The position numbers and the translations under genes are program-made. The notes under the pieces are model-generated. The model did not search any database and had not been told where the DNA came from. It saw only the letters and a list, made by a program, of their open reading frames with translations. A stretch of DNA of 64,000 nt from Somniosus microcephalus (Eukaryota). Of this stretch, positions 3,490 through 63,460 are shown one piece after another. How positions within the stretch are numbered: position 1 is the stretch's first letter; each line of letters opens with the position of its first letter. Location: assembly GCA_052327205.1 (NCBI GenBank), contig CM126210.1, positions 177,878,001-177,942,000 on the forward strand, read 5' to 3'.

Positions 3490-3579
3490 GTGAAGCAGAC
3501 TGTCCATTTCCTTGATAGTCTGTGTCCAGGCCATCATAGATATCTATAGAGTTTTCATTGTCAGTCTTCACTGGAGAAA
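3490..3579 (-). CDS. CASP8AP2: CASP8AP2/FLASH second coding exon
   Basis: tattgtag|(V)SPVKTDNENSIDIYDGLDTDYQGNGQSAS|gtatgt resembles the FLASH N-terminal SPLKNNDEGSLDIYAGLD motif; head-to-head synteny with MDN1 as in human. Confidence 0.85.
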
Positions 3580-5383: not shown

Positions 5384-6147
5384 AGCCCAGAAATTCGGGT
5401 CTCCACGGGTGAGTACGCACGGGGTACTCACCCGTAGGCCCGATGGAAGTGCCGGTTTCCTGCATGCACTGCGCATGCGCGGGAAACCGGCACTTCCGTT
5501 CCTCTGAAAGTAGGGGTTCAGAGGTCGAACGCGTGCACGGGGGAGTCTGCGCGTGCGCTTTGAACTTACTTTTTTTTTAAAAACAGGTTTTTCCGTGAGG
5601 GTAAGTCTTTAGAATTTAGAAATGTAAAAAGCAGGCGTAAGGCCTGCTTTTTACAAGGTAAGTGGTCAATTAATTAAAATTAAAACATTTTTTCCACAGG
5701 TTTATTATTTTAAAATACTTTAAAGCAAGGTAAGTTTATTTTTAGCCCCGTTAGAATATAAAATTATTTTTCAAAAATTTAAATTATTGTTTAAAATAGT
5801 TATTTAATGTAATTTATAGTTTATTTAAAAAATGTGATTTAAAACAAAATTTATTTGAAGGTTTACTGCTATTTTGGGGCCGTAGTATTTATAAGTCTTG
5901 ACAGCACTTCCTGTCAAGACTTATGAATGGAGCATTCCCTGCTGCCATTGGCTCTCCATGGCCCACGTGATCCCAGGGGATGCATTGAACTAACCGCGCC
6001 CCTGGGACACGCAAGCACTGCGCGCCGGCAGCTGGAACAGGCCCCGGATCGGAATTCCACGGGGCCCTACAGCTCAACTGCTGGCGCGCAAGGTAACAGG
6101 TCGGGGGCTTGCACCTGCAGGAAGCCCCCGACCCGAATTTCTGGGCC
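5384..6147. mobile_element. Non-autonomous Harbinger-type element (MITE)
   Basis: TIRs (A)GCCCAGAAATTCGGGTC / GACCCGAATTTCTGGGCC; GC-rich hairpin subtermini around an AT-rich core. Confidence 0.75.
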
Positions 6148-6233
6148 ATTAGGTTTTCTAAAATTGCAGCCACCTGTACATAATTATTTAAGCACAAGAT
6201 AAACTGGCATCGAGCATTCATGGTGTTCCTTAC

Positions 6234-6303
6234 CAAAACTGTCCTGTTGCAACAGATCATCATAAAGATAATCTGCGTTGCTGCTCCCGTCACCACTGTC
6301 CAT
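6234..6303 (-). CDS. CASP8AP2: CASP8AP2/FLASH first coding exon (exon spans 6234-6325 including 5'UTR)
   Basis: Acceptor tttttcttcactcag; ATG in strong context (atcATGG); MDSGDGSSNADYLYDDLLQQDSF then G|gtaag; phase 1 matches exon 3490-3579. Confidence 0.75.
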
Positions 6304-7814
6304 GATGTCTTTAGAAATTCTCCATCTGAGTGAAGAAAAAGTTCCAATCAACACACTATATTAGCATGCAATAAGAAAAATGTACAATTTTCATGGATTG
6401 TGCACACTTGTTAAACACCTCCTGCTTCATTAGCGGATATAGATTTGCCTACAGTCTGCTGATTTCCCCTTGTTGACAAGTCTTGCCAGTCAAGTTTTAT
6501 AGTGCAAGCTGAAAGTGCTTAAAAATACTCCATTTTGTCAAGGACACAGAATATGTAATTATTATCATCGATTCTTCACAATTACAGAAGTATATTGTAC
6601 ATTTAAGATGTTTCAGAATCACTGCCAGCTTGGTATTTGGAGGGTACCGAGTGAAGGAAGGGAAAGGAAACAACTCCCGAGGACAAAGCTGTATCTGCTG
6701 AACAATCTTCAGCTGCAATAGTACGACAAACAAAAACCTTGCTGCCACATTCAGTCAAAGAGCATACAGCCCAACATGACTGAAGTGTTATTATTAATGG
6801 GACGGAGACCATTGCATCTTTTAAGGGAAGAGCAGATAAACATTTGAAGCAGAGGAACAGCCAAGGCTATGGGGACAGAGCAAGAGTGGTAATAGTTTTG
6901 GATTGCTTCAGAAAACAGCCAGCACAGACGCTCAGCTCTCTCTCACTTCCACTGCAACTGACAACCAGCGGAGGAGCACGGGAACTTCAAATCTACAGAA
7001 TCTTACTAGCAAAAGCAGGGAAATGGATGCTGGATTCGAAATGTTTTCTGCACAAAACACAACTGGTTGCCATTCAATAACTTCTCAATGGAAGAAATTG
7101 GATCCTCAACTTCTATTGAAGTCCATACAACTACTTTATTTTAAAGACTTGAAATATCTGTAACTGGATAAATTATTTTGGCCTGTTCCCAAAAACCCTC
7201 CAAAATGCACCAAATCAGAATTTCTTGGAGAGGCAAACTCCAGAAAATAAATCTTTTGTCTTGAACTCTTGTAACTTCCTGCAGGCTTTCACGTACTTAA
7301 ATTATTTATTCCTTCAATATGGAAAGTTGAGTATAGCTACAGTTTAAATTACAGCAAGTCCCTGTCCCATACCATTCTCAGTGCAATTATTTGTTTTCAC
7401 TTGTCATTATTATACATTCTGGGCCATTTTGGAGGGTATTTTTGTGAAGGAACTAGTTAGCTTTTGCTAGTTTTGTAAGGAAAGGACTTACATTGATATG
7501 GCACCTTTCATGTCTGCAGGGTGTCCCAAAGTACTTCACAACCAATGAATTACAGCTTTGATACAATTTCTCCAGAGTTGCAGCATCCAATCAACAGGAG
7601 TGTGTAAATACTGTATGCAGCAACTCAAGGCAGCCATGAGCTACTGCACTAGAGACATTGATAAAAATAATTCAAGTATCAGTAATGAACATAGCTAACA
7701 TAACAGTAAACTACAGTTTTTTTTAGACAAAGTGCAGTCATAGAAAATGTATTTCTGGCACTGCACTCTCTTATTTAATTGTGTGCATAACAACAACATA
7801 TTATCAAGTTACAT

Positions 7815-10680
7815 CGAGTATACAGCACAGAAACAGGCCATTCAGCCCAACTGGTCTGTGCCGGCGTTTATGCTCCACACGAGCCTCCTCTCGCTCTACT
7901 TCATCCCACCCTATCAGCATATTCTTCTATTCCTTTCTCCCTCATGCTTATCCAGCTTCCCTTTATATGCATCTATATATATATATATATGCTATTTGCC
8001 TCAACTACTCCTTGTGGTAGCATGATCCACTCTTACCACTATTTGGGTAAAGAAGTTTCTCCTGAATTCCTTACTGGATTTATTAGTGACTGTCTTATAT
8101 TTATAACCTTTAGTTTTGGTCTCCACCACAAATGGGAACATTTTCTATATGTCTACCCTATCAAAATCTTAAAGATCTCAATTAGGTCACCCCTCAGCCG
8201 TCTCGAGACCCAGCCTGTTCAGTCTTTCCTGCTAAGTATATCCTCTCAGTTCTGGTATCATCCCTGTGAATCTTTTTTGCACCTTCTCCAATGCCTCTAT
8301 ATCCTTTTTATAATATGGAGACCAGAACTGTGCACAGTACTCCAAGTGTGGTCTAACCAAGGTTCGATTTAAGTTCAACAAAACGTCTCTGCTTTTCAAA
8401 TCTATCCCTCTGGAAATGAATCCCAGTGCTAGGTTTGCATTTTTTTATGGCCTTACTAAACTGCGTCACTACTTTTAATGATTTGTGTTTCTCTACCCTT
8501 CGATCCCTTTGCTCCTCTACCCCATTCAGACTTATTATCCAAGGAGTGCGTGGCCTCTTTATTCTTCCTATATACCAAGATTCACCACCTCATTCTTATT
8601 TATATTGAAATTAATTTGTCAATTACACACCCATTCTGTAAGCTTATTAATGTCTTCCTGTATTTTGTTACATCCTTCCTTTGTATTAACTGCACCTCCC
8701 AATTTGGTGTTCTCCGCAAATTTTAAAATTGTACAACCGATTCCGGCATCCACATCATTAATGTAAATCGTGAACAGCAGCGGTCCCAGCACCGATCCCC
8801 GTGGAACACCACTTTGTATCGTTTGCCAGTGTGAATAGCTACACTTAACCCCTACTCTCGGTTTTCTGTTCTGTAGCCAGCTTGCTATTCATTCTGCTAT
8901 CTATCCCCTGATTCCACATGCTCTGACCGTAGTCATGAGTCTACTATGCGGTACCTTATCGAAGGCCTTTTTAAAATCCAAATATATTATATAATGATTT
9001 GTATAGGTTTCTACTGCATTTCCCTTTTCTTCGAAGAATTCAGTAAGGTTGATCAAGCATGACGTTCCCTTTTGAAATCTGTGCTGACTACTTCGGTTTA
9101 TTATATTTTCGGTTTCCAGATATTTTTCTAGTACATCTTGGAGTAAAGATTCCATTATCTTTCCTACCACTGATGTTAAGCTAACTGGTCTGTAGGTCTC
9201 TGGACTTGTTCCATCTCCCTTTTAAATATAAGAACATTAGCTGTCCGCCAGTCCTTTGGCACTATTCCCTTTACTAACGAATACAGTGCCTTTGCTATCT
9301 CTTCCCTAACTTCTTTTAATATGTGCGGATGCTATCCATCTGGACCAGGAGTTTTATCTTCTCTAATTTTGATTAGTTTATCAATTATCTCCCCCCTACC
9401 CCCCATTTCTATCTTAAATGTCTTTATATCTTTTTTTGATCTCTTCTTCTAAAGTCATACCCACCTGGTTAGCTTCCCTTGTTCAGTAATTGTTCAATAT
9501 TTCTGCCATTTCCTGAGAGTTTAGCTTGTGCATCTCTTAGTGGCCCTATCCCTATCCTGATTTCTCTGTTATTTGTTTGTCTGAAGAATGCTTGACTTTT
9601 TTTTATATTCCTCGATAATTTTATTTTGTAGTTCCTTTTTGCTTTCCTAATTTTTTTGGACTTCTTTCCTAACTGTCACCCTCTCCTTTATTGGCTATGT
9701 ACTTGGGTGTGCTTTTTTCTTCAGTTTCAATTTTATCATTCTCTCTTTATCCATTATGGTGTTTCATTATTGGATAAAGCAGTTCCCGCTGTTGTTCTAC
9801 CTCTGTGCGTCAATAACAAATTCAAGTTTGCCTTCCCTACTTCTATTCTCATCCCCTCAAAATTTTGTTTTTTTCCTTTGATCTTTGTCTTACTTATGTC
9901 TTTCTCAATCATTATTTTAAACCTATGTTATGATCGCTATTACCTAAACGGTCCCCTATGCTTACTTCTCTTATCTGCTCGGATTCATTTCCCATTACTA
10001 GATCCAGTAGTGATTCCTCTCTTTATGTACTGGGTAAGAAAGGACCCCTGAACACACTGTAAAAACTCTATTCCCTCTTCCCCTTCTTGCCAGTTTATTT
10101 GGGGGTAGCCGAACTCTCCCATGATTATTATTCTATGTCTTTTACTCAGTTCATAGATTTGTCTACATATTTCTTCCTACACTTCCCTTCCACTATTAGA
10201 TGGTTTGCAGATTACCCCCATTAAGGTGATCGGGCCATCCTTTGTCTCAATCCATATGGATTCTGTGTCTATCTTAATGCTAGTTATGTCCCTTTTTTCT
10301 GCAGACTCTATCTGTTCCCCCTAATTATCGAATTCTCTATGACTACAACCTTTCTATTCTGCTGCTTCCCCTTGGACTGCCTCCTGCTCCATGGTGCCAT
10401 TGTTAGCGTTCTGGCCACCTTCCCTGTAGCCTTCATCCTGATCTTCACAGGTAGCAAGTATATTGTGCCTGTTGGATAGGACCAGTGTCTGCAGGGCCTC
10501 CTTCTCGATCTCCCCCTGGTTCTTCACCCTGTGCTGACTCAGACGTCACTAATTGAGTTTTTCCCTCCGTTTGTCTGGCATCAGCTGCTGCTCACCGTCG
10601 CTCTGTTTTTAAATCACTGGTGCTGGAGCTTCTCGCTCTTTGAGCTCTCTCTCTGCCTGCGCTCCTTTTAAACTGTTTAT
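7815..10680 (-). mobile_element. Degenerate CR1 LINE
   Basis: RT remnants VGKIMESLL...QHRFQKGTSCLINLTEFFE...IYLDFKKAFDKVPHSRL (8901-9170); CR1 3' tail near 7815. Confidence 0.8.
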
Positions 10681-10879: not shown

Positions 10880-11520
10880 CTTCTTCTCTTAGGCAGTCCC
10901 TCGGAACCGAGGATGACTTGCTTCCACATTAAAAATGAGTTCGCAGGTGACTGATGAGTCCAATGTGGGACCTACAGTCTCTGTCACAGGTGGGGCAGAC
11001 GGTGATTGAAGGGGCAGGTGGGTGTGCTCCTTGCACTACCTGCGCTTGGCTTCCGCTTGCTCCCGGCGAAGAGACGCAAGGTGTTCGGTGCCTTCCCGGA
11101 TGCTTTTCCTCCACTTTGTGCGGTCTTGGGCTAGGGATTCCCAGGAGTCGGTGGGGATGTTCCACTTTTTCAAGGAGGCTTTGAGGGTGTCCTTGAAGCG
11201 TTTCCTGGGGCTCTCTTGCCGTGTCGGAGTTCCGAGTAGAGTGTTTGTTTTGGGAGTCTCGTATCGGGCATGCAGACAATGTGACCCGTCCATCGGAGCT
11301 GATCAAGCGTGGTCAAAGCATCGATGCTGGCCTGAGCCAGAACACTGACGTTGGTGCGCCTATCCTGCCAAAGGATTTGCAGTATCTTGCGGAGGCAGCG
11401 TTGGTGGTACCTCTCCAGTGCTTTAAGGTGCCTGCTGTACATGGTCCATGTCTCTGAGGCATACAGCAGGGTGGGTATCACTGCTGCTCTGTAGACCATG
11501 AACTTAGTGCCGGGTTTGAG
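10880..11520 (-). mobile_element. RTE-clade LINE 3' fragment
   Basis: [22 protein letters not shown]...[19 protein letters not shown]...[22 protein letters not shown]; short 3'UTR and (GAA)-type tail; same family as 32897-35979. Confidence 0.9.
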
Positions 11521-11748
11521 GGTTGTGAACCTTTGGAATTCTCTACCCCAAAGGGCTGTGGCTGCTGAGTCCTTGGGCAGATTCAAGGCGTAGATAGATA
11601 CGTTTTTGGACTCTGGGGGGAATCAAGGGATATGGGGATCGGGCAGGAAAGTGGAGTTGTGGTCGAAGATCAGCCATGATCTTATTGAATGGCGGAGCAG
11701 ACGTGAAGGGCCGTATGGTCTACTCCTGCTCCTAATTCTTATGTTCTT
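11519..11748 (+). mobile_element. CR1 LINE 3' fragment
   Basis: gttgtgaacctttggaattctctacccc...gatcagccatgatcttattgaatggcggagcag...ctcctgctcctaattcttatgttctta. Confidence 0.85.
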
Positions 11749-11749
11749 A

Positions 11750-12330
11750 ACATCACATTGTTGGTTGCTGCTTTCCATTTGTTAGAGATGTGGACCATCA
11801 AGTCATAAGACTCAAAGGTCTCGAACTTCATCTGAAGCTATTTCAGCACTGTATATGGAGAATGTCTGTCAATCATTTTTCCTACATAAATGTAGTTATT
11901 TACACTTGCCTGCATTAAATGTCATCTATTTTATAATTTGTGAGCTACATCTTAGTTTAGCATTTCCTCCAAATGTGACCAATTTGCACTTTGTTTTCAT
12001 CCAAGTCATTAAATGCAAGTTAAAAACACTTTGGGCATCTTCATGCTGTGGAAGTATGTCAAGGTCCAGGAAAGACCATTATGGTGCATTCACCTCACTC
12101 CAAAGTTTACAAATTTCTTTACATTACACGTACTCCTCAATCTCTTTCTCCAGCAAACATCTATCCAGCTCCCTCTTGAATTTGTTATTCTCCACCCCAC
12201 TGCATCCCCAGACAGTCTGTTCCATGTACTCACCATCCTCTCTGCAATGCTGTTGAATCTGAACTGTCTGTTCACCTTCCCTCTTTTCAACTTCCGTCCA
12301 TGCCTCCTGGTTACACTGTGGCCATAGGAC
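11750..12330 (-). mobile_element. Old CR1 fragments (also 10700-10875)
   Basis: Degenerate CR1 peptides LVRLHLMYNGQFW (10711 ORF) and ERMVSTWNRL (12090 ORF). Confidence 0.6.
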
Positions 12331-13549
12331 TAGTTCCAAGATTCAGTAAATACCACACAATATTCTTTTTTACCCTCCAAATCATTTGCTTTTTGCTGAA
12401 AAACAATCCATCACTTTCTTGGGTTTCCTAACACTACATTTTGCCACTATCTCCAAGGACAGTTTACGCCACACATTCACCAGCTTCTGTATCAGTCGTT
12501 AAAACTTAATGGTACATTCATCTTCCCTCTTCTGAGCTTGGGTCCATATCCCCATTAGAGTGATATCACACATATTATTCAAATTCTATATACTACTTAA
12601 AATCTTCAGTAGTTCAAAATGTTCCTTGAACCCTCCCCACGCAATGTAAATTCTCCCAGTTGCCCTCTGCTATGCAGTCAGGATCCTCTCCACTTTTTAA
12701 AAATTCATCTCAGGATGGGAGTGTCACATCCTGAAATGCAGCTGCATTTATTGCCCACCCCAGTTGCCTGAGAAGGTGGTGGTGGTGGGCCACCTACTAG
12801 ACCAATGCCTTGAGCTCATTTTCCAGATGGCATGGTACTGAGCCATACAAGCATGGAAGAACCCAGGTTAGATCTCCATTCTGTGCCATGTTGGCCAGAG
12901 AGCAGCAATGTGCTGAGGCAAAATAAAATTAGCTTATGGTTCCTGCTGCTGAACACTATCTAGTGGTTCCTGGAGTTTGACTAAAATACCAAAGGGCTGC
13001 AAATACTGACAGAACTGTACTCCAGCATTCAGGAGAATAAAGGTGAGGGCGAACAATGGAATGTGTACTGAAGCGCAGACGTCAAAGCAGGGGCCCAACC
13101 TCACCTTTGAACTTGTGGAGGCCACCAGAAAAACAACAGCCCCTCCTTTAAAGAGAATCTGAATGACAACTACAGCCCGGGAAAAAGAAAACCTTCAGTC
13201 AGGCATCAAAATGCAGCAAATAAGCACAACCCAAATAAACACAAATACAAATCTCCACTTATTTATGCTCCAATTAGGCAGTCAATGACTCAAGAGTCCC
13301 GTCATGCTCAGCATATAAAATGCATCAGTTTGAGTGCACAGCAACAATTATAGCACAACACACATACTGAGGGTGAGACAAGTGGCTGTGGGGAAGGTTG
13401 GTTATTTTTCTAATAGACTCGGCCAAATCAAAACAAACAGAAAGGAGAACGCAGATGCTTTTTTTTATAACTGTGAACGGTGGAAGTTGCGAGCGCCGGG
13501 CACACAGTCAATGGTGCTCTCTCCTGTCTGTGTCTGTGCCTATGCCTAC

Positions 13550-13770
13550 CTGTTTGTTTGTTTGTCTGTCTGTCTGTCTGTCTCACACTCTCTGCCTGCC
13601 GCCGCTCCCGGGAAATGAGAGCGAGGCTTCCCGCGCGCCTTCCACCCTCAACCTTCGCTCCGCCGACAAGGAGACGCCACCCAACCAAGAGAGTCCCGGC
13701 CCCCAGCACTCCGGCCGCAGCGCCATCTGCACGGGCTGCGGCGAACCGCTCCAAGCCGGGAGTCAAAGGC
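13550..13770 (-). promoter_or_regulatory. CpG-rich promoter and probable non-coding first exon of CASP8AP2
   Basis: Local CpG/GC-rich patch in an AT-rich background; minus-strand donor CAG|gtaggc at 13550/13549; (TGTC)n microsatellite at ~13550-13582. Confidence 0.55.
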
Positions 13771-13865
13771 TGTGTGCATTGTGGAAACAGCAAGATGTCT
13801 CAGCTAAAACAACAGAAAATGCTGGAAATACTCAGCAGGCTAGGCAGCATCCGTGGAGAGAGAAA

Positions 13866-13907
13866 CAGAGTTAACGTTTCAGGTCTGGGACCCTTCATCA
13901 GAACTGG
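13866..13907 (-). ncRNA. Minimal hammerhead ribozyme motif (PLE-associated)
   Basis: Exact reverse complement of 14492-14533. Confidence 0.7.
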
Positions 13908-14491
13908 AAAAAGCTGGAGATGTAACAGATATTAAGCAGGTGCAGAGACGGCGGTGGGGGGGAGGGGGGGTGTTAGGAGGGGAGGAAGGAATTGAAAGAA
14001 CACCCTGTACTTTTGTAAGAGGCAGGAAAGATAAAATGTTGCAAATGGGAATGGCAAAAATCATACTGCATGAAAAATGGGGGCAGGGATAATTATCTGA
14101 AATTGTTGAACTCAATGTTGAGTCCAGCAGGCTGCAAAGTGCCCAATCGAAAGATGAGGTGCTTTTCCTCGAGCTTACGTTGATCTCTCTGTCCTCGGGC
14201 TATTGCATTGTTCCAATGAAGCTCAACGTAAGCTCGAGGAACAGCACCTCATCTTTCGATTGGGCACTTTGCAGCCTGCCGGACTCAACATTGAGTTCAA
14301 CAATTTCAGATAATTATCCCTGCCCCCATTTTTCATGCAGTATGATTTTTGCCATTCCCATTTGCAACATTTTATCTTTCCTGCCTCTTACAAAAGTACA
14401 GGGTGTTCTTTCTATTTCTTCCTCCCCTCCTAACTGCCCCCCCCCCCCCATCTCTGCACCTGCTTAATACTTGTTACATCTCCAGCTTTTT

Positions 14492-14533
14492 CCAGTTCTG
14501 ATGAAGGGTCCCAGACCTGAAACGTTAACTCTG
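14492..14533 (+). ncRNA. Minimal type I hammerhead ribozyme motif (PLE-associated)
   Basis: ccAGTT-CTGATGA-a-GGGTC-cca-GACCT-GAAAC-GTT-AACT: conserved CUGAnGA and GAAA core, stem II, palindromic stem III (AACGTT), stem I AGTT/AACT. Confidence 0.7.
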
Positions 14534-14944
14534 TTTCTCTCTCCACGGATGTTGCCTGGCCTTTCCAGCATTTTCTGTTGTTATTTCAGATTTCCAGCAT
14601 CCGCAGTATTTTGCTATTATGATAGAATAGCTTACTAGTACTCACTGTCAAGGCTCGCTCATAAATACTGACTACATAGGTGAGATATTCGAGGTTGCCC
14701 AATACCCATGGAGCCGTACCTGATCAAGGAGTCGGAAGTTTTGGCAGTGGTGAAAATGAACAAAAATTATATTGCCAGAATATGAGCAAACAAGTTCTGA
14801 GTCTAAACCTTTTGTTGATGCATGGTCACTGCAGAGTTGGGAGACACAGCAACTCCCCTATTGTTTGGAAGTACAGTAGCCTGACTAGTGCCACCATACA
14901 GCAGGCATTTATCAGCACAACTCGGCTGGTCTGTACTTGCTGAG

Positions 14945-15070
14945 GAAACATAGAAGATAGGAGCAGGAGTAGGCCATTCGGCCCCTCGAGCCTGCTCCGC
15001 CATTCAATGCGATCATGGCTGATCATCCAAATTCAGTACCCTGTCCCTGCTTTCTCCCCATATCCCTTGT
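14945..15070 (-). mobile_element. Short CR1 3' tail fragment
   Basis: aacatagaagataggagcaggagtaggccattcggccc...gatcatggctgatc; similar copies at 26025-26165 and 63325-63460. Confidence 0.75.
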
Positions 15071-16374
15071 GAGGAATTTTGTGAGTGAAATTTATGACCA
15101 GCACCCCTGAGACAGATCACATACCCATTTAAAAGTGAGGAGCTGTGCTCTTTTTAAAGAGTAAAATACATCAGAATAGGCTAAAATGAGTGAGTCTCTC
15201 TTCAAATGAGTAAAAATATGGCAGAGTATCTGTAAATGAAGATTCTATGTGGAACATTTGCTTGTTCAAATTCATAAGCCTAGTCAACCTTTAATAATAG
15301 GTAAGATAGGTGATTGAAGAAAAGGGGAATAAGGGATATGGGCACAGGGGAATAGGCCTTTAAAGTAATACCTTTCAGGGTGACACTGAGTTGTTGCCCC
15401 AGTGTCACTAGATGGGAACAAAAATTGTTAAGGCAAATGCCCTAGGGCACCACAAACATGAACCAAACAATAATAACTATGTACAATACAGTGAAATGCA
15501 CAAATAATAATTAAATCTTAATGAGATTGTGGATATCAACTAATGGCTTTATACCCTGTGGCGCCAACTGGTCACAGAAGGCATCAAGCATACTTGTGGA
15601 CACACCATGCTCCCTCTCCAGGGACAATGCCACGGAAGAGAGGCAGGCAACCAAAGTGACCCCCTCCTCCCCTGTGCCACCACCCCCCTCCCCCCGCCGC
15701 CACCACCATCATATGCCCCGCTCATCCTAGACCGCTGCTTTAGCCAATGAGAAATTCCACCTGAATGGGGGTAAGATTGGGCAGGATCTCGCCACGCTCT
15801 CGAGCTCACAGGGCAATAGGATAAACAACAGTATGGACTTATTGGGACAGACTGTTTCTGTGTTGTAATTTCTATGTAATTCTAAAAAGGCATTCATTGC
15901 CTGCTTACTTCACAAAAAGACAGAGTGCCCCTCATAGCCACCTTCCACTTTGACCACTGATCTATGATCTTTCAGCTAAACAAGTTATGATTTACATTTT
16001 CCATGGTGTTAATAATTCATGTGGAAACACCTTCAAAAAAATTATAAAATAAAAAGACACTGTTTTATGCAAAAGTGAGGCAGGTTTCCATGTGGATGGT
16101 GTCACACCACGTATAATGTGAAGATGTTTTGATTGGAGTATTTGTATTTGGCAAACACATTGCAAAAATGTTCATTAAAGGCGTGTAAAATGCTATATGG
16201 GTAGCTTTTTAATGCTACACAATTGTAAATCTGAATTTGTTGCTTATTTAAAAAGAATGAAAATTTGTTTCAAGTTACTTTGCTTACTTACACGACTAAT
16301 TTTGTCAATCCATGCAACCGAGGCAGTAAAATGTTGATAAGCTGTTTTGGAGGAGGTATTCAGCTTTAAATGTG

Positions 16375-16528
16375 CAAGTGCCCCGGAAGTGCTCCTCTCA
16401 GTCTCTTCCACGTGTGGCTGTGTTGCAGCTAAAATTGTAACATGCTGCTGCCGGCTGTTTAACTTTCCTGCCATTTTATTCGCACAAATTGTCCTGCGAC
16501 CTCCTTTCCCCCGAGGGTCGCTGACAGC
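16375..16528 (+). promoter_or_regulatory. MDN1 proximal promoter / 5'UTR
   Basis: ETS site CCGGAAGTG 16383-16391, E-box CACGTG 16409-16414 and YY1-like GCCATTTT 16470-16477 just upstream of the ATG. Confidence 0.6.
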
Positions 16529-16624
16529 ATGGAGAACTTCGAGTTTCAGTTAGCGTCTCTTCCACTTATTGCCAAGTTAAACGAGAAGAGCCGCAACGAG
16601 CTGAACAAGTACTTGGCCAAGCAG
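16529..16624 (+). CDS. MDN1: MDN1 coding exon 1
   Basis: ATG in context cagcATGG; [32 protein letters not shown]; donor CAG|gtgagt. Confidence 0.93.
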
Positions 16625-19600
16625 GTGAGTGTTTGAGAGCTTGGCCCAAGCGGGGTGTGGGTCGTGTATCCCCACAGCTTCTTCCAACCTGGCGCAGATT
16701 TTGCATTTGGTTGTCCACTGACTCGGTAGAGTTTATTGTTTAGATAGACAATGTTGTAATTGTAGATTGCACCTGATTTAATTGAGACAAATGATTTGCA
16801 AACTGGCGTGAAAACACTGCTGTGGTTGTACAGTTAATGCATTTTGTTCAGGTAATGCCCGCTACTACAGGAGGGATGTCCGGTTTGTCACCCAGAGATT
16901 GGATAACGTCCAGTATTTTTTTTAACATTAAACCTGAGGTGTTGCTCCCGGAGTCAGGAGTCACAGTTTTATGGTGGATTATATGTTATGTTGGGGGTGG
17001 TAACTGACCGAATAAGTTACATTCCATTTTTATTATGTAGGATTTTTACTGGTGCTTGAATTTCACGAGGCATCATTATTCTGTGAAACTTATATGAATG
17101 TGTAGCTTTTATTCCTTTTACCTATGTATTTAATAGCTTTTAAAATAGTAAGGGTTGTGAATGCACAGTAAGGTGGTATGAAATTGTATCAGTTGTAGGT
17201 GGATATCTGGCACTTAGCAGTACCGGGGAGTGGGGTTTGTCTGCACTGGAGGAGAGCAGCTCTCTACTGTTGTAGACGGCCCTGGAGTTTGTCCCACGGC
17301 AGGGCTTTGGAAGAATGTCGAGGGGAATGGGGGAGGTTCTTTGGTTTGGCTTTACTGTGGCAAGGGAATGGGGTTTGGCAGATAAGTGGGGGCTGGAACA
17401 TGGGGTTTGGACCACTGATGAATTCTTGGTGTCTGTCAGTATGGAGGGCGGGGATAGAACAAACAACTTCCGACATTGAATTTGATTTTCTTTTTGTTGA
17501 TTCCTTTGGGGGCCGGGGGTTGGCCGGGGGGGGGGTGCGGGCCGGGGGCGGCCGGGCCGGAGGGTGGGGTGTTTGAATGGTAGTTGGTTCGGTGTTGTGA
17601 CAACAGGGATTTGAAAGGACATTAAAGGCAGCAGCTCTAGTTGATAAGGCCATTTTATTTTTAAAAACTAATAGAATTTGGGGTTTTATCACATAAGGCA
17701 TAGAATATATAAAGGTTACGGTAAAGATGAGCCTATATAAAACCTTAAGACCTTAAAGTAGGCTGTAGAGGGTCCGAAGCAGATTCACTAGGCTGCTGCC
17801 TTGTATGAGGAAATACAAATTCTTTTATGTCAAATATGAAGACAGACTTGGACAAATTGAGGCTTTTTTGTTAGAACAATGCAGATTACAGGGCAATATA
17901 ATAGAATTGTTTAAAATTATGACAGGATAAATAGAAGCAATAGTTGGGGGTTCAAAAATGAAGGGCTGTAGATGCAAGAGTAAATGTAAGATTTAGAACA
18001 GAGGGCAGGAGAAACTTATTCAGAGTTGAGGCTGTAGCATTCACTTCCAGGGTTGGTAGTTGAGGCAGAAAATATGTTGACATTCAAGATTAGATTGAAT
18101 AGATGGAAGATGGGATCTGGGAGCAGGTTGGGTAAATGTGATCAGAACCGAAGGGTCCCAGACCTGAAACGTTAACTCTGTTTCTCTCTCCATGGATGCT
18201 GCCTGGCCTGCTGAGTATTTCCAGCATGTTCTGTTGTTGCTGACATGGACTGGTTGGGTCGACTGGCCTGTTTACGTGTTGTAACTTCTGTGTATCCTTG
18301 CCCACAGTATACACTCTGTGTCTCAACCGTTGGAATGTAAATATTCCCACATTCTAATTACCATGAACAAAAACTCATTCTCTCTCTGCCTCTCCGCAAA
18401 ATATTGGCCTGGATTTTTCGGTTGTAATGACGGCGAAACTGTCAGTGTTCGCCATCATTACTGTGTACAACTGACAGTGACTTCTGGCATCCACACATGC
18501 GCAGTTAAATGTGGAAATCTAGAAGTTGTTGTCAGTGATTCCCAGCTCCTCCACAGGACGCGTTGTTGACGACCTCGCAGCTGACGCGAGCTTCTCCTTT
18601 TTACGCTGTAATATCGCTGTTAAATCCCCCCCCCCCCAAAAAGTTAAGCCTTGTTCGGTTAGGTGTAACTGGCCCTGAAAAACTAATTTTATATTTGTCA
18701 AATTTTTCCATTATGATAATTCCATAGGTTTTTGATATAATAATTATTATTTAAAAAAAAAAATTGATACTTCAGCTTCTAACTTAATCCCATGTGTATA
18801 TCCCAATCTTTAGTTCGTTCTCTGTAAAAAAAAAAAAAAAAAAAAAAAAATTATAAAAAGTGAAGGATAATCTGTGCATTTTACTTCCCGGTTTCACAGA
18901 AACCCCACAGTGCAGATAGAGGCCATTTCGGCCCATGGAGCCTGCACCGACACATATCCCACCCGATTCCCCATAACCCCTACACCAACACATATCCCAC
19001 CCTATCCCCGTAACCCCACGTATTTAATCCCCCTAACACTAAGGGTCAATTTATCATAGCCAATCAACCTATCCCGCACATTTTTGGACTGTGGGAAGAA
19101 ACCGGAGCACCCGGAGAAAACCCACGCAAACACGGGGAGAATGTGCAAACTCCACACAGACAGTCACCCGAGGTCGGATTCGAACCCGGGTCCTTGGCGC
19201 TGTGAGGCAACAGTGCTAACCACTATGCCACCGTGCTGCCACGGTTTGCTGTCTGAGAATTCTTCAATGTGCTTGGCCAGCTTGATGAAGTCACTGTTGC
19301 TGAACACTGGAAACCGCCCAGACTTGGCGCCAGAATCAAATTAACGTTGGGAAAGGTGAAATCTCAGCCACAGAGATTGCTAGATCTTTGTGTGAAGCTT
19401 TCTTTGAGGTCAGCGGCGAGTGCCGTCACTTAGCTGCTGATCGCAAAATCCAGGCCACTGTTAGAGATATTTAAATCTGTATTGTGTGTGATTGATTACG
19501 TTTCTCTCTCCCCCTCTCATCTATTCAGATTTGGAACGAGCAGGATCGCCAGTGTATCCTTAATGTCTTAGCCCAGCTACTGTTGGATAAAGAATGCACA

Positions 19601-25600: not shown

Positions 25601-28600
25601 CTGGTGGAGCATTCCACATCCTAACAGTCGGTTATTTAAAAAAAAATCTCCTAACTCCTCCTTTCCATCTTTTGGTGATTGATCTTAAAATTATGCCTTC
25701 TAATTACTGACCAGTGGAAATAGATTTTCTTGATTTAAAAAAAAGAAATGAAAATCTCTCCTTCATTCTCTTTCTTAACATACTCTAAGCTTGCTGTGTA
25801 GTTTCTACACTGTCTGTTCCCTGATCTTTCAATGTCATTCTCCACCATACTAGTTTAAATCCACCTGTAGTGTTTTATTAACCCTCCCCTCCAGTGTACT
25901 GGTGCCAGTATGGCTCAGACGAAGGATATTCCAACTTAAAAACTTTTCCCCTGTCGCAGCACTCTTCCCCTGAGCACCAAAAGTCTAAACTCTTCCCTCT
26001 TGCTCCATATGTGTAGTGCACATTTAAGAGCAGAAGTAGGCCATATGGCATATCGAGCCTGCTCCACCATTCAATAAGATCATGGCTGATCATCAACATC
26101 AACTCTACTTTCCCGCCCGATCTCCATATCCCTTGATTCCCCTAGAGTCCAAAAACCTGTCTATCAAATGTCTAATCCTATCTTGTCTTATCCTACCTAT
26201 CCTGTCTAATCCTATCTTGTCTAATCCTATCCTAGCTACCCTGTCCACTATGGCATTGCTAGTAAACCGGAGATTGCTACTTGGATGTCCTTTTCTTGAA
26301 TTTAGGACCTACTCCAGGAACTGCAATCTTCTCTTGCCTAAGCCATTGGTCCCGACATGAATTGTGGCTACTGGCTGCTCCCTCTCCCTTGCCAGAAGTT
26401 TGCATAGCCACTGTGTGATGTTCTTCACCCTGGTGCCATGGAAGTAACAGACCATGCAGGACTTGGCCAGGTCTATAACTCCGATAATGGAATCTTCTCA
26501 TACAACTGCCACTATTTTCTCCTTTGCACTTTTTCTCTCTCTGGCTTGGATTGCCCATTTCATCGCGTGCCAGTGTTGACCCAGACTATCCTCACCCAGG
26601 TCACTGCTGTTAACCCCCGTGTGGGTATCGAAGGTATTGGACAGCTTCGGGAACCTGGGGTTTTCTTGCACTTTCTGTCTCTATGGTGACCGTTGACTGG
26701 GACATGTGATCCTGAAACACCTCATTCTCCCAGATGTTCTGGAATGCAGAGAGTTGGTGCCAAAGCTCAGCGATCCTGCACTTGAGAGAATCCACCCTCA
26801 GGCACCTGATTTAAAAAAAAAAAGACTTGTATTTATATAGTGCCTTTCACAACCACCGGACGTCCCACAGCGCATTACAGCCAGTGAAATACTTTTTGAA
26901 GTGCAGTCACTATATTATAATGTAGGAAACGCGGCAGCCAATTTGCGCACAGCAAGCTCCCACAAACAGCAGTGTGATAATGACCAGATAATCTGTTTTT
27001 TAGTGATGTTGATTGAGGCATATATATTGGCCAGGACACCGGGGATAACTCCCCTGCTCTTCTTCGAAATAGTGCCAAGGGATCTTTTGTGTCCGCTTGA
27101 GAGAATAGACGGGGTCTCTGTTTAACGTCTCATCCAAAAGACGGCACCTCTGACAGTGCAGCACTCCCTCTACTACAACCTGAAGGATCAAATCTTCCTC
27201 GCAAACCGTGGACAACCATCAGCCGTCTCCGAACTGGTCATGGTAGATGCTGTCACCTTCTCCATAGATGGAAGATTCAAGCATCCCCATCATACGACTG
27301 TGGAGCTCCTAATCAGACCCTGGAGCACATCATTGAGCACTGCCCTCAGAGGAAATTTGCAGACAGCCTACAAGATATCCACGCTGTTACACCAGAAGCT
27401 TTGGCCTGGATATCTGACTGAGATATTGACATTTGATTTGCTTTGCTACTACCATACGAAAGAAGTAGTAGCACTGCACTGGAGTGTCAGCCTAGATTTT
27501 TGTGCTCAAGTCCTGAAGTGGGATTTGAACCCACAACCTTCTGACTCAGGCGAGGGTGCTACCAACTGAGCCACGGCTGACACCTAATGCAGACAAAAGA
27601 CTCCGACATCTTGCATTCCACACACATCCTGCAGGCCCCTGCCCCCTCTTTCTAATATTATGAACTTGGCTGAAAGGAAAACGTTTACTCCCTGACTTCT
27701 TACCCAGATTCTGAAGCAGTCCAGGTCACTGGATAGCTAGGAGGAGTAGAAACGTTGTCCAGCTTTGCCTTTTCTAATGGAGGGACACTAGGAGAGACCA
27801 GGCACCATGTGAGACTTTCAGTTGCAGCTGCAAAAATGTTTTTCTATTTCCCCCCCCCGCCCACCCCCCCCAGTATGGAATTTCCTATTATTACCACCAT
27901 TTCTGCACTTCAACTCTCTTTTTGGCAACTACTTGCTCCATGGTGGCCTTCTCCAAGTTGTTTCTAGAGTCTGGGCATTCAGTTAGTTCAACACCCTGGA
28001 GGGATCTCTGCACTGCCTCCCATCTCTGTTTTCCTACTCCGATGGTCACCCACCTCTTTCTTCACTAACTTGCCCTGTCTGTGGCACGGATACATTTTTT
28101 TAGAATGTACATCCCAGGGACGCTTCACTTTCCCATAGATGACCGAGTGCCCCAGCTGCTCCTCAAGCTTAGAATCTTTGGGCACAAGCACTTGGAGACC
28201 TTTCCTGCACACGTGGTCATCCTGGACACGCCTAGCATCCAGGGCCTCCCACACTGCGCAGGTATTGCACATCGCAGGCTAAGCTATCCCAACTCCCATC
28301 TAAACTAAACTCCTCAAACTCTATAATATGCACCTCGAGCATGAACTCCCTCCTAAAGCTAAACTCCACACGGCACTGGTCCTTTTGCACTCTACTAGCC
28401 TCTCATTAGCGCACGGAGATTCTGTGCAGGATGTAAATTTAAAGGTTGTCTTGCAGAAAATATCAATTCTGTAAATGAACAGGAATTGTAATTTGGGCAC
28501 TACTTAAATATTTTGATTTAGTTACTGCTGCAGGTTATTATTTCACTTTCCTAGACGAACTGTGATGTGGCCTGCTTATGTACAGATTTGTGTATGCATT

Positions 28601-31600: not shown

Positions 31601-34600
31601 GCAACTTTGCTGGACAAACTCTGGACCAAAATCCAGTTGGACAACATGAACAGGACAGAACTAAAAGAGGTGAGTTTATTTTACTTTTTATCAAATGCTT
31701 TCCTCCCCGACCGCCAAAGAAATCTCTCCAAAGGTGCATTCTGGTAATGGAGTAATAACTGGAGCAGATGTCATTCTCCAAACTTCATTGTGCATTGTGG
31801 CCTAACATGCCATACATTATAGAAGTTTTGCACCCATCTGCCACTGGGTCCTCCAGCACCACTGTACATTCGCAGCTGCATCCACGATGCATCATGCTGT
31901 GCAAACGAGGCACCTTGGGGCCGTAGCAGTTTTCAGCACAGAAGGAGACCATTCACCCCATTGTGTCTGCGCCGACTTTGTTGGAGCAATCCGAAGCTAA
32001 GCCCACTGCTATGCTCACTCCTGATAGCTCTGTATCTTCCTCTGCTTCAGCTGTTTATCCACTTTTCCTTTTGAAAGATGCAACGATTTCTGCCTCAACT
32101 AATCCCCGCAGCAAAGCATTCCATCCTTTTAATAACTCTCGGCATAAAGAGATTTCTTCTAATCTCACTCCCTTTAGTGACCATTTTAAATGGATGATCC
32201 CTCCTCACTGACTCCCCAGCCAGAGAAAACCGTCTTTCCTATTCACCGCCTCAGAACCCTCAATTAAATCATTTTGGTCGTTTCTGCTTCAGTAGAATAG
32301 TAAATAGCATCTTTAGTCTCTCTCTTCATAACTGTTCATCATCCCAATGAACCTATGTTGCAGGGTCTCAATTATTGTTTTTATAATTGGGTGTCCTTAA
32401 CTGTGTACAGAACAATAGCTGTGTGGCTTTATCATTTCCTTGTACAAATTGATCATAATCTCTTCTCCTGTGTTTTGTCCTTTTATTAACCTGCACTTAC
32501 ATTTTCAAGAAATGGTGTTTGATCCCCTGGATCTCTCCGCTCATCAATATCCTTCACCATCTTTCCATTCCTTGTTTTCCTTCCCAGAATGTATGGCCTC
32601 GTGCTTCTCCACAGTAAATTCTATGTACCAGATGTCTGCTCATTCTGCTGACATGTCTGTGTTCTGAAAGTCTTCTGCAGTCCTGCTTGATGTTTGCCAA
32701 ACCCTGATTTTATCTCCGCACATTGATGATCTACTTCCTATGCCCAAGTCCAGATCACTTGTATAGTAAAAAGAAAAGTGGACCCTGCAACCTTTCTCCA
32801 GTCTGAGCAACACCTATTGACCCCCAACTAACAACTATTAACCTTAACCCTTCCTGTTCTAATTTAATGTTTCACTTCAGCCTGCTATGTTAATATCTTC
32901 TTAGGCAGTCCCTCTGAACCGAGGATGACTTGCTTCCACATTAAAAATGAGTTCTCAGGTGACTGATGAGTCCAATGTGGGACCTACAGTCTCTGTCACA
33001 GGTGGGGCAGACGGTAGTTGAAGGGGCGGGTGGGTGGGGTGCTTGGGTTGACGTGCGCTGCCTGCGCTTGGCTTCCGCTTGCTCCCGGCGAAGAGACTTG
33101 GTGTTCAGCGCCTTCCCAGATGCTTCTCCTTCACTTTGTGCGGTCTTGGGCCAGGGATTCCCAGGTGTTGGTGGGATGTTGCACTTTTTCAAGGAGGCTT
33201 TGAGGGTGTCCTTGAAGCGTTTCCTCTGCCCACCTGGGGCTCTCTTGCCGTGCTGGAGCTCCGAGTAGAGCGCTTGTTTTGGGAGTCTTGTATCGGGCAT
33301 GTGGACAATGTGACCCATCCATTGGAGCTGATCAAGCGTGGTCAAAGCTTTGATGTTGGCCTGAGCAAGAACACTGACATTGGTGTGCCTATCCTGCCAA
33401 TGTATTTGCAGGATCTTGCGGAGGTAGCATTGGTGGTACCTCTCCAGTGCTTTGAGGTACCTGCTGTACATGGTCCATGTCTCTGAGGCATACAGCAGGG
33501 CGGGTATCACTGCTGCTCTGTAGACCATGAGCTTAGTGCCGGGTTTGAAGTCCTGGTCTTCAAACACTCTCTCCTCCTCAGGCGACAGAAGGCGGCACTG
33601 GCACACTGAAGGCGGTGTTGGACTTCGTCATCGATGTCTGCCCTTGTTGACAGTAGGCCCCCGAGGTATGGAAAGTGGTCCACGTTGTCCAAGGCCTTGT
33701 TGTGGATTTTGATAATCGGGGGGCAGTACTGTGTGGCGGGGGCAGGTTGGTAGAGGACCTTTGTCTTACAGACGTTTAGTGCAAGGCCCATGCTCTCGTA
33801 CGCTTCGGTGAAGGTGTTGACGACGGTTTGGAGTTCGACCTCCGAGTGTGCGCAGACGCAAGCGTCGTCTGCATACTGTAATTCGACGACAGAGGATGGG
33901 ATGACCTTAGATCTGGACTGGAGGCAACGGAGGTTGAACAGTTTCTCGTTTGTCCTGTAAATTAGCTCCACTCCAGTGGGGAGCTTACTGAGAGTGAGAT
34001 GGAGCATTGCAGCAAGGACGATCGAGAAGAGCGTTAGTGCGATGACACAGCCTTGCTTGACCCCGGTTCGTACGTGAATTGGGTCTGTGGTGGAACTGTT
34101 GGTCAGGGTCGCGGCTTGCATGTCGTCGTGAAGCAGGCAGAGGATGGTGACAAACTTTTGAGGGCAGCCGAATTTGAGGAGGACACTCCATAATCCCTCA
34201 CGGTTGACAGTGTCGAAGGCCTTTGTGAAATCAAAGAAGGCCACGTACAGCGGTTGGTGCTGTTCCCTGCATTTCTCTTGTAATTGACGTGCGGTGAAGA
34301 TCATGTCCATTGTGCCCCTTAATGGGCGGAATCCGCATTGCGACTCTGGGAGGAGCTCTTCGGCCACTGGGAGAAGGCGATTGAGGAGGATTCTTGCGAT
34401 GACTTTCTCTGTGGCAGACAGCAGGGAAACTCCTCTAATTACCGCAATCGGACTTGTGACCATCTTCAAGAAAGGTGACAATTACGGCGTCTGAGATCCC
34501 CTGGCATGCTCTCCTCCTTCCAGATAAGAGAAATGAGTTCATGAATTCGCACCAGTAGTGCTTCTCTACCATGCTTTAGTGCCTCGGTGGGGATTCCATC

Positions 34601-46600: not shown

Positions 46601-49600
46601 GAGAATAGATTTTGGAAAAGTACATTGTCCATTGTTGCTTCTAGCAAATGGTCATTTTTAAAGCTGTGAAATAATAATGGATGGAAAAACACAATGCCTT
46701 CTCCCAAATATCTTGTTCCATTGTGATTCACATCCTCTAATGCCATAATAATTTATTTTAGTGTTACAATTGTATACTGGAAACTTGTCCCAATTGTCGG
46801 CAAAATTGACCCTAAAATGTGGCTTGTTTTGTCATGATGGATGCACGCAAGGTTTGTCAATGAAATTGAGTTCACTTTTGTGTGAGGTATTGTCACACTG
46901 TACAAAGTTAGCTATACTGTGCGTGTGTTTTGAAATGACAGTGGTAAAATAACAACTTGAATTTTTTTGTAACTACATATAGACCCGGATTTTGCTGGAG
47001 TGGGCCCTGTTAGTTCGACTTGTTCGTGCTCGTTTAGGTTTTAAAGAACTTTGCCCACAAATTTGCTGGCAGTGCAAGCTGATAATGGGGCCTTGGTGAA
47101 CAACAGGACCAATAGTCTATTTCCTTAATGAGGTTACATGATTGAGAAATAAACAGGAAGGACTTAGGAAGAGGGTGAATTCAAAAATTGGGTGTAGAGA
47201 GAAATGGACAGGAAAGAAAGATTGGATTGAGAGAGAGAGAGAGAAAAGAGGCAGAAAGGAAAATGAGAATTTAAAAAAAAAAAAAAAAAAAATTTGATGT
47301 TTTTATATCTCCAATAATTCACTACCTGAAGGAATGAAACTCCACACTTTTTAATTGTTCACTTTCTGGGCAAGGAAAGTTGATTGGCTGTTATGTACAA
47401 TTATCACATTGTTAAAATGGTACTTGCACTGTTGATTACTAGACTTAACTTCCTGTGGCGAGTTTAGTGGGCAATTGATGTGCAAATGCAGCAACTTTAT
47501 GAAAATCACGGGGATGTTAAGGGTGGGATGCAGTTTTCGCGAAGCTAACAGCGGAGCAGCGCAAATCGGCCAGCAACTTGTGGTGATTTGCAAATCATGG
47601 GGTATCTTTTGCCGGTCAATTTGCGCATTAATAAATGTGAATGTCATTCAGACACCGTTTCAGCATAATCTGAGTCATAGCTTAACAGTAGAATTTGGAG
47701 TATTGTATCTGAAAGGTGTTTTGTTTTATATAAAAGCTGATGTCCTCAGGGTAACAAAAGGTGTTTCGATTTCTGTGTAATTCACATCTGAAGAAGCTGA
47801 CTATCTGAATTTTTTTTTAATTTTTTTTAAACAATGGCATCTATTTTATTTTAGAAGCCTGGCTGAGAGAGAAATGGGAATTACTTGGTCTCCGTCTGAG
47901 TCAGGCTCAGCAACAAATGAAATTGACTGAATCGGCACTGGTATTTGCCTTTGTGGAGGTGAGGTGCGAGAGTGATTGACATCTTTGCCACTGAGCACTT
48001 GGAGTGATTCTCGAAGGGGGTCTTGCAATACTGGCTTGTTGCAAGGTTCTTTCATCAGTACTGTTATGATTGTGGGAACTACATTGCTTGTTCTCAAAAT
48101 ATTAAAGCGCGATTTATTTTTACAGTAAATTCTGGCCCGATGTATTGTAATTACTATCCTTGACTTCTGATCAAAAATTCAGGGCTTTCTGATTTTGTAA
48201 TTGATTTTTCTGTAATATTCCTGACAGTCACACATACAATGTATGGGAATGCCTCTATCCCAAATGATAATGACCAGCCTAATGCACAAGCCAGCAGAGT
48301 GCCAGTGAAAGCTGCTGAGAAATCGATAGTGAAGCTACTGTCTAACTGCCGGTGGCACACAGTGAAATCACTCTCTCTTTCTGGCTCATTCTTCGGGAGC
48401 AATCTACTTTAATTACATTTCCCTGCTCTTTTTCTCCACGCTTTTTAAAAAAAAAAGTATTTTTCTTGTTTAAATTCCATCTAAAACATTGTGGTTGGTC
48501 AGTTCAATAGTTACTTGTGATAACGCTCTCTATATTCTAATGCACTTGGACATGCAAAACATTTTTCCTAATTTGCCTTAGTACTCACCCTAAATTTATG
48601 CCTTTTTCTTTCCGATTCATTGACCAGCGGGAACAATCTTTTACCTTCACTTTTGAGCACTTCTATTAAAATCTGACCCCCAACCACTTTTAATTATACA
48701 GTAACAAAATACTGTGGATGCTGGAAATCTGAAATAACAGAAAATGCTGGAAACACTCAGCAGGCCAGGCAGCATCCATGGATAGAGAAACAGAGTTAAT
48801 GTTTCAGGTCGATGACACTTCGTCAGAACTGGAAAAAGTTAGAGATGTAACAGGTTTTAAGCAGGTGCAGGGGCAGGGAAAGGGGGTGGGGGGAGGGGAG
48901 GAAGGAACTAAAGGGACAGTCTGTGCTAGGATTGAACTGGAAAATTTAATTCACTTTGCTTCCAATTTCCACCCTTCCCTCACCTTCACATGGTCCATCT
49001 CCGACTCTTCCCTTCCTTGACTTCTCTGTCTCCATTTCTGGCGATAGACTATCGACAAACATCCACTACAAGCCCACTGACTCCCACAGCTACCTTGGCT
49101 ACACTTCCTCCCACCCCGCTTCCTGTAAGGACTCTATTCCATTCTCCCAGTTTCTTCGTCTCTGCCACATCTGTTCTGACGATGCCACCTTCCATACCAG
49201 TGCTTCCGATATGTCTTCCTTTTTCCTCAACCGAGTATTCCCCTGGCATTGCTTTCGACCGTGTCTGTTCCATTTCCCGCACTTCTGCTCTCACCCCTTC
49301 TCCCTCCCAGAACCACAATAGGGTTCTCCTTGTCCTCCCCTTTCACCCCACCAGCCTCCACATTCAACGGATCATCCTCCGCCATTTCCGCCACCTCCAA
49401 CGTGATCCCACCACCAAATGTATCTTCCCCTCGCCTCCCCTTTCAGCATTCCGAAGGGACCGCTCCCTCCGCAACACCCTGGTCCACTCCTCAATCATCC
49501 CCCAACAGCCCCTCCCCTCCCCACGGCACCTTCCCGTGCAAGCGCAGGAGATGCAACACCTGCCCTTTTACCTCCTCCCTTCCCACTGTCCAGGGCCCCA

Positions 49601-63324: not shown

Positions 63325-63460
63325 CATAAGAATATAAGAAATAGGAGCAGGAGTAGGCCATTTGGCCCTTCGAGCCTGTTCCGCCATTCAGTAAGATCAT
63401 GGCTGATCTTCTACCTCATCTCCACTTCCCTGCACTATCACCATATCCCTTGATTCCCTT
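63325..63460 (-). mobile_element. CR1 3' tail fragment
   Basis: cataagaatataagaaataggagcaggagtaggccatt...gatcatggctgatct; another tail begins ~63940. Confidence 0.75.

Follow-up and report, generated by a model that had tools for sequence, protein, structure and literature searches.

What does a long palindrome with one hammerhead motif on each strand represent when it lies a short distance from a CpG-rich promoter, and does it serve the host? In Somniosus microcephalus such a structure sits between CASP8AP2 and a right-hand gene that we take to be MDN1, a name with which its AAA exons fit. We studied it in a window of 64,000 nucleotides (contig CM126210.1 of assembly GCA_052327205.1, positions 177,878,001 to 177,942,000 of the forward strand), the whole stretch of DNA analyzed here, whose own numbering is used below. 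The palindrome consists of two 5′-truncated 3′ ends of an abundant GIY-YIG Penelope-like element (PLE) joined head to head, and it is probably an ordinary relic without a role for the host. This layout is already published for PLEs in excerpts of PMC3846280, PMC8557442 and PMC4209133 (these papers, as well as PMC11167929, PMC8053094 and PMC6765202, are cited throughout for excerpts), and the locus is one more copy of it. It matters little by itself, as a further instance of a known layout in a very large family; the literature titles on shark PLEs and on CASP8AP2 with MDN1 include none on this locus.

Anatomy of the palindrome and its parent family

Self-comparison of the window confirmed an inverted repeat with arms at 13808-14183 and 14223-14582. 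On global alignment of the reverse-complemented left arm with the right arm, 10 substitutions are found in 360 aligned bases (2.8%) together with three gap events, one of which removes 9 nt from the right arm; the sequence-only reading thus described the arms fairly as near-perfect reverse complements, though they are not identical. The parts of the palindrome and its closest relatives in the window are:

13808 to 14183, minus strand: left copy, a 5′-truncated PLE 3′ end with the last ~29 endonuclease codons, the 3′ UTR/pLTR and the hammerhead; it points at CASP8AP2
14181 to 14620, plus strand: right copy, a 5′-truncated 3′ end of the same PLE, ~40 nt longer on its 5′ side and tailed; it points toward MDN1
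14181 to 14183, no strand assigned: TGA, the 3-nt microhomology common to both copies at the head-to-head junction; family contigs match from 14181
14184 to 14222, plus strand: endonuclease-coding centre of the right copy only, with an open frame and paralog matches
14182 to 14313, plus strand: C-terminal 43 codons and stop of the GIY-YIG endonuclease (tblastn with the RT-EN protein P0039, E 5e-5)
14583 to 14620, plus strand: tail extension of 35-38 nt at the right end only; the same tail occurs at 52511 and 48696 and is absent at 18238
48696 to 52511, no strand assigned: two further inverted family insertions in an MDN1 intron, with pieces of the RT, the CX4CxxC linker (49537-49563) and GIY-YIG

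The centre had been taken for a 39-bp spacer, an interpretation that does not survive: 14184-14222 belongs to the endonuclease frame of the right copy and is no neutral spacer. An open frame of 43 codons followed by a stop (14182-14310) spans the centre and the right arm, the central sequence continues unbroken in the paralogs at 49804 and 52101, and family reads cross 14184-14222 as an opposite-strand joint 14183/14222. The overall span had been given as 13808 to 14620, and the element does reach to about 14617-14620; the right end, however, is a tail without a counterpart in the left arm. The left outer end lies within 2 nt of the tail-less end of an 89-nt family 3′ stub in MDN1 intron 1 (18150-18238, truncated inside the hammerhead core). 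Since 13808 coincides with this end while the copies at 52511 and 48696 are tailed, it looks like an RT start site rather than a random stop. Loose ends at 13808 mark the point where other family copies continue into the tail, and 1050 reads of the RNA run X21 likewise run on from 13808 into it. The two flanks show no target-site duplication (TSD), their longest common word being 4 nt, and there is no poly(A) signal inside the palindrome. A MITE or foldback DNA transposon was considered and set aside in light of the asymmetric ends, the lack of a TSD and the retroelement coding content.

The Penelope-like origin, which had also been proposed from the sequence alone, is borne out by the match of the endonuclease frame to an RT-EN protein and by the presence of both RT and GIY-YIG in paralogs within the window. 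Besides the focal pair, the 64-kb window holds six pieces of the family, with the 48696-52511 complex counted in its separate parts; the copies in this complex served as the family reference for the focal pair. A PLE-type RT is absent from the focal stubs and is found in the paralogs (48933-51615), where it matches RT-EN polyproteins. Relatives of this RT account for 49 of the 120 candidates, the best of which come from the sharks and rays Stegostoma, Mobula, Hypanus, Rhincodon and Chiloscyllium and point to a cartilaginous fish as the likely host; a Pfam search with the three paralog RT fragments alone returned no families. The GIY-YIG domain of the paralog at 51718-52197 is recovered by Pfam with an E of 0.0013, which is below the Pfam cut-off, and the paralog endonuclease carries the CCHH cysteines. 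The CX4CxxC linker at 49537-49563 is partly deleted in the 51.8k copy. A linker of the form CX2-5CxxC between RT and EN defines the Neptune clade in an excerpt of PMC8557442, and the window paralogs resemble that clade in having this linker as well as, at the C-terminus, a GIY-YIG endonuclease with the CCHH motif; Nematis also has a linker of this type. The family thus likely belongs to the Neptune clade, an assignment resting on the linker motif and the host. Contigs of run X2 have a summed depth of up to 5.8 million on the left arm as compared to 18 on the unique flank, a measure that does not equal copy number, and the family is plainly huge. For this run and three further ones (four of 24, with one of the two raw RNA runs, X21, among them), reads and contigs were compared with 12300-14222.

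Formation and age of the inverted pair

5′ inversions of L1 elements by twin priming involve two primers, an inverted segment and microhomology at the joint inside the insertion. This geometry recurs at 50279-52511: the RT part of the insertion there (~residues 140-590 of P0039) is inverted on the minus strand, its plus-strand part runs from ~residue 597 through the endonuclease and the hammerhead (52407) to the tail, and ~25-35 nt are lost at the inner break. Twin priming is a candidate description of this insertion, whose junction at 51620 unites parts of the element that are not mirror images. The neighboring insertion at 48696-50195 joins a tailed minus-strand copy of ~240 bp to a 1.26-kb plus-strand copy at 48933, with 5 nt of microhomology at the junction; both hammerheads of this pair are altered in the core or in helix III. 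The focal pair differs from the L1 inversions in that both of its copies begin at the 3′ end of the element and both of these ends face outward.

For the focal pair, we propose as the somewhat favored route within the relic reading that the RT-endonuclease would have nicked both strands and each 3′-OH would have primed cDNA at one of two adjacent start sites, which define the tail. Both cDNAs would have halted, after about 380 and 440 nt, and their 3′ ends would have annealed over the TGA, followed by fill-in. The hammerheads would have come along as passengers from the terminal repeat of the element. With both strands serving as cDNA primers, one tailed end, one short end and microhomology at the junction are to be expected. 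The closest biochemical parallel is the Poseidon element PAc of Anolis carolinensis, as excerpted from PMC11167929: its protein cuts and extends both strands, in vitro RT has two adjacent starting points, by which the tail is defined, and a hammerhead lies in its terminal repeat. We apply these properties to the focal unit by analogy, since PAc belongs to another clade and Penelope/Poseidon elements, per the same excerpt, are without the linker. The insertion unit of EN+ PLEs, in excerpts of PMC3846280 and PMC8557442, shares with the focal pair its head-to-head inverted copies, a tail on one end, an overlap at the junction and an optional TSD. An inverted 5′-truncated copy with a 30-40 bp tail is described as typical of EN+ PLEs (PMC8557442, excerpt), and the excerpted portion of PMC3846280 gives head-to-head as the most frequent PLE arrangement and describes copies without a TSD. 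Even the 5′ shortfall of one copy is comparable, at ~40 nt here versus 37 bp in Pen2a_Av in the same excerpts. In contrast to that unit, both focal copies are RT-less stubs without a direct tandem repeat, and they belong to a shark-type family and lie beside a housekeeping promoter. Without an RT, the focal copy cannot move by itself.

The circumstance that speaks against twin priming is that the two truncation points are only ~40 nt apart. A single tail-primed cDNA that ended at 14181, bent back across a loop of 39 nt and served as its own template would explain this proximity more simply than two independent stops, and it would likewise leave an inert relic; the TGA match fits it, as do diagnostic bases that are common to the arms and absent from the paralogs. 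Self-priming has been proposed for PLEs in the excerpted text of PMC3846280. However, the left arm extends to the short family end and not to the end of such a template, the 48933 junction joins a tailed minus-strand copy to a plus-strand copy that does not have that end, and the 51620 junction joins non-mirror parts. We accordingly regard snap-back as a serious but lesser contender among the routes to a relic, and as possible, though rather unlikely, when set among all readings of the locus; other routes receive a small remainder. As twin priming and snap-back lead to the same final sequence, the focal locus alone cannot decide between them. In this regard, the presence in one window of three junctions, one near-mirror, one non-mirror and one of the twin-priming type, provides comparable material for the open question of how PLEs come to be inserted in inverted form.

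Divergence between the two arms (2.8%) is lower than their divergence from the nearest paralog (6.8-7.0%), and both arms have changes of their own, a pattern that suggests a single origin of both arms followed by decay. An assembly artefact made from a fold-back read was considered as well. Inverted PLE structures are known from PMC8557442, in the part excerpted, to trouble assemblies, but the 10 substitutions and three indels between the arms, some of them common to real paralogs, the one-sided tail and the family-typical geometry make an artefact hardly credible here. Additionally, a contig of X2 crosses from the unique flank into the left arm and covers 27 letters of it, which is below the 31-letter bridging rule and in line with the left junction being real.

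An alternative offered by the sequence-only reading was that of a neutral young insertion. Neutrality fits best; youth does not, given an arm divergence of 2.8% against a divergence of 0.2% between the unique flank and the X2 contig (3 of 1461 letters). The flank differs at 10 of 245 letters from X4 and at 45 of 636 from X5, these two being other organisms whose sequences do not extend to the left junction. Provided that the arms were identical when formed, these figures would place the insertion long before the split from X2 and a good part of the way back to X4; the counts are small, and the two templates may not have been identical to begin with. Of the arm differences, two fall in the inner half and eight in the outer half (Fisher p 0.053), which hints at conversion or constraint close to the centre.

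Hammerhead motifs and read-through RNA

Each arm contains one hammerhead motif:

14494 to 14530, plus strand: minimal type I hammerhead motif with a 4-bp stem I, a 5-bp stem II closed by G.U and an ACGU palindromic stem III
13869 to 13905, minus strand: identical motif of the left copy, with the predicted cut between 13873 and 13872

An identical, intact and outward-facing motif per arm had been claimed. The two are the same letter for letter, the predicted cut on the plus strand falling after GUU at 14526; the word intact needs qualifying on account of the G.U closure of stem II and the GUU triplet. Both motifs possess the CUGANGA and GAAA boxes, an NUH site, a helix I of 4-5 bp, an extra base after A9 and a palindromic helix III, and the conserved closing pair G10.1-C11.1 is absent, with G.U in its place. 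A descriptor of the minimal hammerhead has three matches in the window (the two arms and 52407) as compared to none in 200 shuffled windows, and a simpler hammerhead pattern has five as compared to 0.5 expected. The register of the motif is further supported by the loose-end consensus of other family copies, which shows A-U, or G-C with a GUC site. A search with the Rfam hammerhead models, which had been suggested as a check, came out negative: no hammerhead is among the three Rfam matches at E<=1, all of which are generic hairpins below the gathering score. Being generic hairpin matches only, these also gave no reason to identify the structure as a miRNA or RUF6.

As to variation in the family at large, loose ends at 13861 and 13885 reveal subfamilies that differ at the closing pair of stem II (A-U, G.U or G-C). 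The cleavage triplet of these subfamilies is GUU or GUC and, taken with the closing pair, constitutes a covariation series in a single repeat family. A block of 80 nt that surrounds the hammerhead, and was picked post hoc, has no differences between the left arm and the 52k paralog; it would be best read as a trace of selection in the source elements.

The motifs resemble the minimal hammerheads of metazoan PLEs, in the portion of PMC4209133 excerpted, in their core boxes, the 4-bp helix I, the additional base between positions 9 and 10.1, the palindromic 15.2-16.2 and the occurrence of pairs on opposite strands separated by a few hundred bp; such dual motifs at distances of 100-700 bp were already noted there. 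As putative members of that group, they differ from these in having G.U and not G10.1-C11.1, a 5-bp helix II and a GUU site. The same excerpt reports that the minimal form does not cleave as a monomer and cleaves weakly as a dimer, and for the anole element the excerpted part of PMC11167929 states that the hammerhead cleaves only with protein and is dispensable for insertion. Non-LTR retrozymes (bioRxiv 10.64898/2026.07.22.740005) are also short, non-coding, PLE-derived units with a type I hammerhead, and they too occur in a chondrichthyan genome; however, they are direct tandem units, whereas the focal unit is an inverted one that has a single motif on each strand. A retrozyme was rejected for this locus, as there is no direct tandem hammerhead repeat in 11000-18000.

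The most elaborate proposal of the sequence-only reading was a functional RNA unit, in which transcription through the palindrome gives a hairpin for siRNA production or ADAR along with ribozyme cleavage of the transcript from either strand. Its first half is well founded as a matter of predicted folding: nearest-neighbor folding of 13790-14630, which leaves tertiary contacts, proteins and kinetics aside, returns long hairpins of about -698 and -691 kcal/mol for the two strands with 89% of the bases paired. Both motifs retain intact core nucleotides, and antisense small RNAs to Penelope copies in rotifers are described in an excerpt of PMC3846280. The second half, that is, a working ribozyme on either strand, is not supported, because hairpin and hammerhead folds exclude each other. 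On either strand the sense motif is always in the distal, second-made arm; in both read-through RNAs it is predicted to be fully paired to its complement, and forcing the hammerhead fold would cost 70.6 kcal/mol on either strand. Even in a nascent plus-strand RNA ending at 14530 the motif is predicted to be already paired. RNAs begun at the centre have a predicted stem II probability of 0.73-0.91 and a stem I probability of 0.00, and a swapped dimer is predicted at -8.5 versus -14.6 for two free monomers. The models thus predict a sense hammerhead that is buried in the hairpin upon read-through and active hammerhead folds that are not ground states. The idea that the two motifs might act as a dimer in cis also fails, because they lie on opposite strands. 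The G.U closing pair and the GUU site count further against a functional unit. We consequently judge it quite improbable, with a hairpin formed as a by-product without cleavage being possible on these predictions. For the inert relic that we prefer, read-through RNA, whichever side it came from, would form a hairpin of ~360 bp with the sense hammerhead trapped in it, and RNA started within the palindrome would have just one minimal motif, in need of a partner and probably of the protein of the element. This calls for caution, in that the palindrome would trap rather than deploy its hammerheads. Extrusion of the DNA as a cruciform, which had also been envisaged, is disfavored by the asymmetric 39-nt centre; with 320-bp Alu inverted repeats in yeast, a 9-bp spacer reduces breaks by 80% and abolishes fork pausing, per the excerpted text of PMC8053094.

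The RNA run X21, of which 16.65 million records (~24% of the run) were read, has 6270 reads placed on 12300-14222, just 170 of them at >=99% identity. Its depth is zero in all 15 bins of 12820-13794 (74 letters at 13521-13594 being skipped), and since this includes the presumed exon 1 of CASP8AP2, the run neither supports nor refutes transcription of the palindrome. Among the 24 sequencing runs searched, no RNA run was listed as containing the sequence, a result that does not bear on expression. The family reads show no A>G excess indicative of A-to-I editing (A>G at 11 places, C>T at 11 and G>A at 10), and none of the four listed piles of read begins or ends is at the predicted cut site. Both results weigh against the functional RNA unit with little power, the reads being mostly from paralogs. 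The X21 family reads at 13795-14222 are strongly strand-biased, with first mates mostly in the sense of the element; for a dUTP-stranded library, this would mean that most of the family RNA is antisense.

Neighboring genes and the prospect of co-option

The genes on either side are represented by the following features:

13401 to 13780, minus strand: CpG-rich likely promoter and presumed non-coding first exon of CASP8AP2, with a candidate donor at ~13551 and a YY1-like motif at 13728
~6233 to 6325, minus strand: candidate upstream ATG exon of CASP8AP2, predicted
3490 to 3579, minus strand: coding exon of CASP8AP2; both of its two candidates are CASP8-associated protein 2 (Rhincodon typus 90%, Mustelus asterias 83%)
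16529 to 16624, plus strand: likely first coding exon of MDN1, with AAA exons downstream (AAA_5 E 0.005, below the Pfam cut-off)

The palindrome had been placed between the divergent promoters of CASP8AP2 and MDN1. It does lie between the two genes but is close to the CASP8AP2 promoter only: CpG-rich windows cover 13401-13900, and about 50 bp separate the end of the CpG cluster from the left arm, in agreement with the distance originally given, whereas the coding start of the right-hand gene is ~1.8 kb away, with an ETS-like motif at 16383, upstream of its first coding exon.

This position invites the question of whether the left repeat was co-opted as a promoter or start of CASP8AP2, or whether the palindrome draws silencing or stops antisense transcription; a hypothetical role as bidirectional terminator or insulator had also been raised from the sequence alone. 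The left arm faces CASP8AP2 in sense orientation, X2 also shows its junction, with 27 letters of the arm covered, and pLTRs hold promoters according to excerpts of PMC6765202 and PMC3846280. The persistence that the insertion seems to show ~50 bp from a CpG-rich promoter is also an observation against the inert reading, as a harmful or a useful element could persist too. Against co-option stand the scattered substitutions and indels of the arms, the lack of a poly(A) signal within the palindrome and the nil depth of X21 in the bin beside the arm (13730-13794), though exon 1 reads are lacking there too. Moreover, the family is so large that some of its copies must land near promoters. Hence, we hold co-option to be improbable. 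A more specific version is that the left repeat serves as promoter or upstream start of CASP8AP2, that the hammerhead in the resulting leader is activated in trans by Penelope RNA or protein and decaps the message, and that the palindrome traps antisense transcripts as dsRNA. We consider it very improbable; were it true, CASP8AP2, a gene of histone transcription, would be tied to the activity of a retrotransposon. In general, the locus would gain importance if CASP8AP2 were driven or tuned by the left repeat, and none of the literature titles searched reports such a vertebrate case, which is weak evidence of absence. We retain the reading as an ordinary relic.

Several other repeats were observed around these genes. 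A (CTGT)n/(TTTG)n microsatellite at 13521-13594 lies at the candidate donor of CASP8AP2 exon 1. A short, dispersed, SINE-like repeat occurs at 11593-11749, 14947-15069, 26024-26165 and 63327-63461, one of its copies being situated between the palindrome and the MDN1 promoter. In a CASP8AP2 intron, a minus-strand ORF (720-1274) codes for a Myb/SANT-like domain (E 1.8e-11) and is presumably a piece of a Harbinger-type transposon. Two LINE fragments at 10887-11519 and 32899-34481 are 89% identical, the second with an RVT_1 domain (E 1.8e-31), and a further LINE-like stretch lies at ~8000-10300. Finally, a short imperfect CpG-rich palindrome with AT-rich flanks at 5395-5520, in a CASP8AP2 intron, is possibly a small derivative of a DNA transposon.
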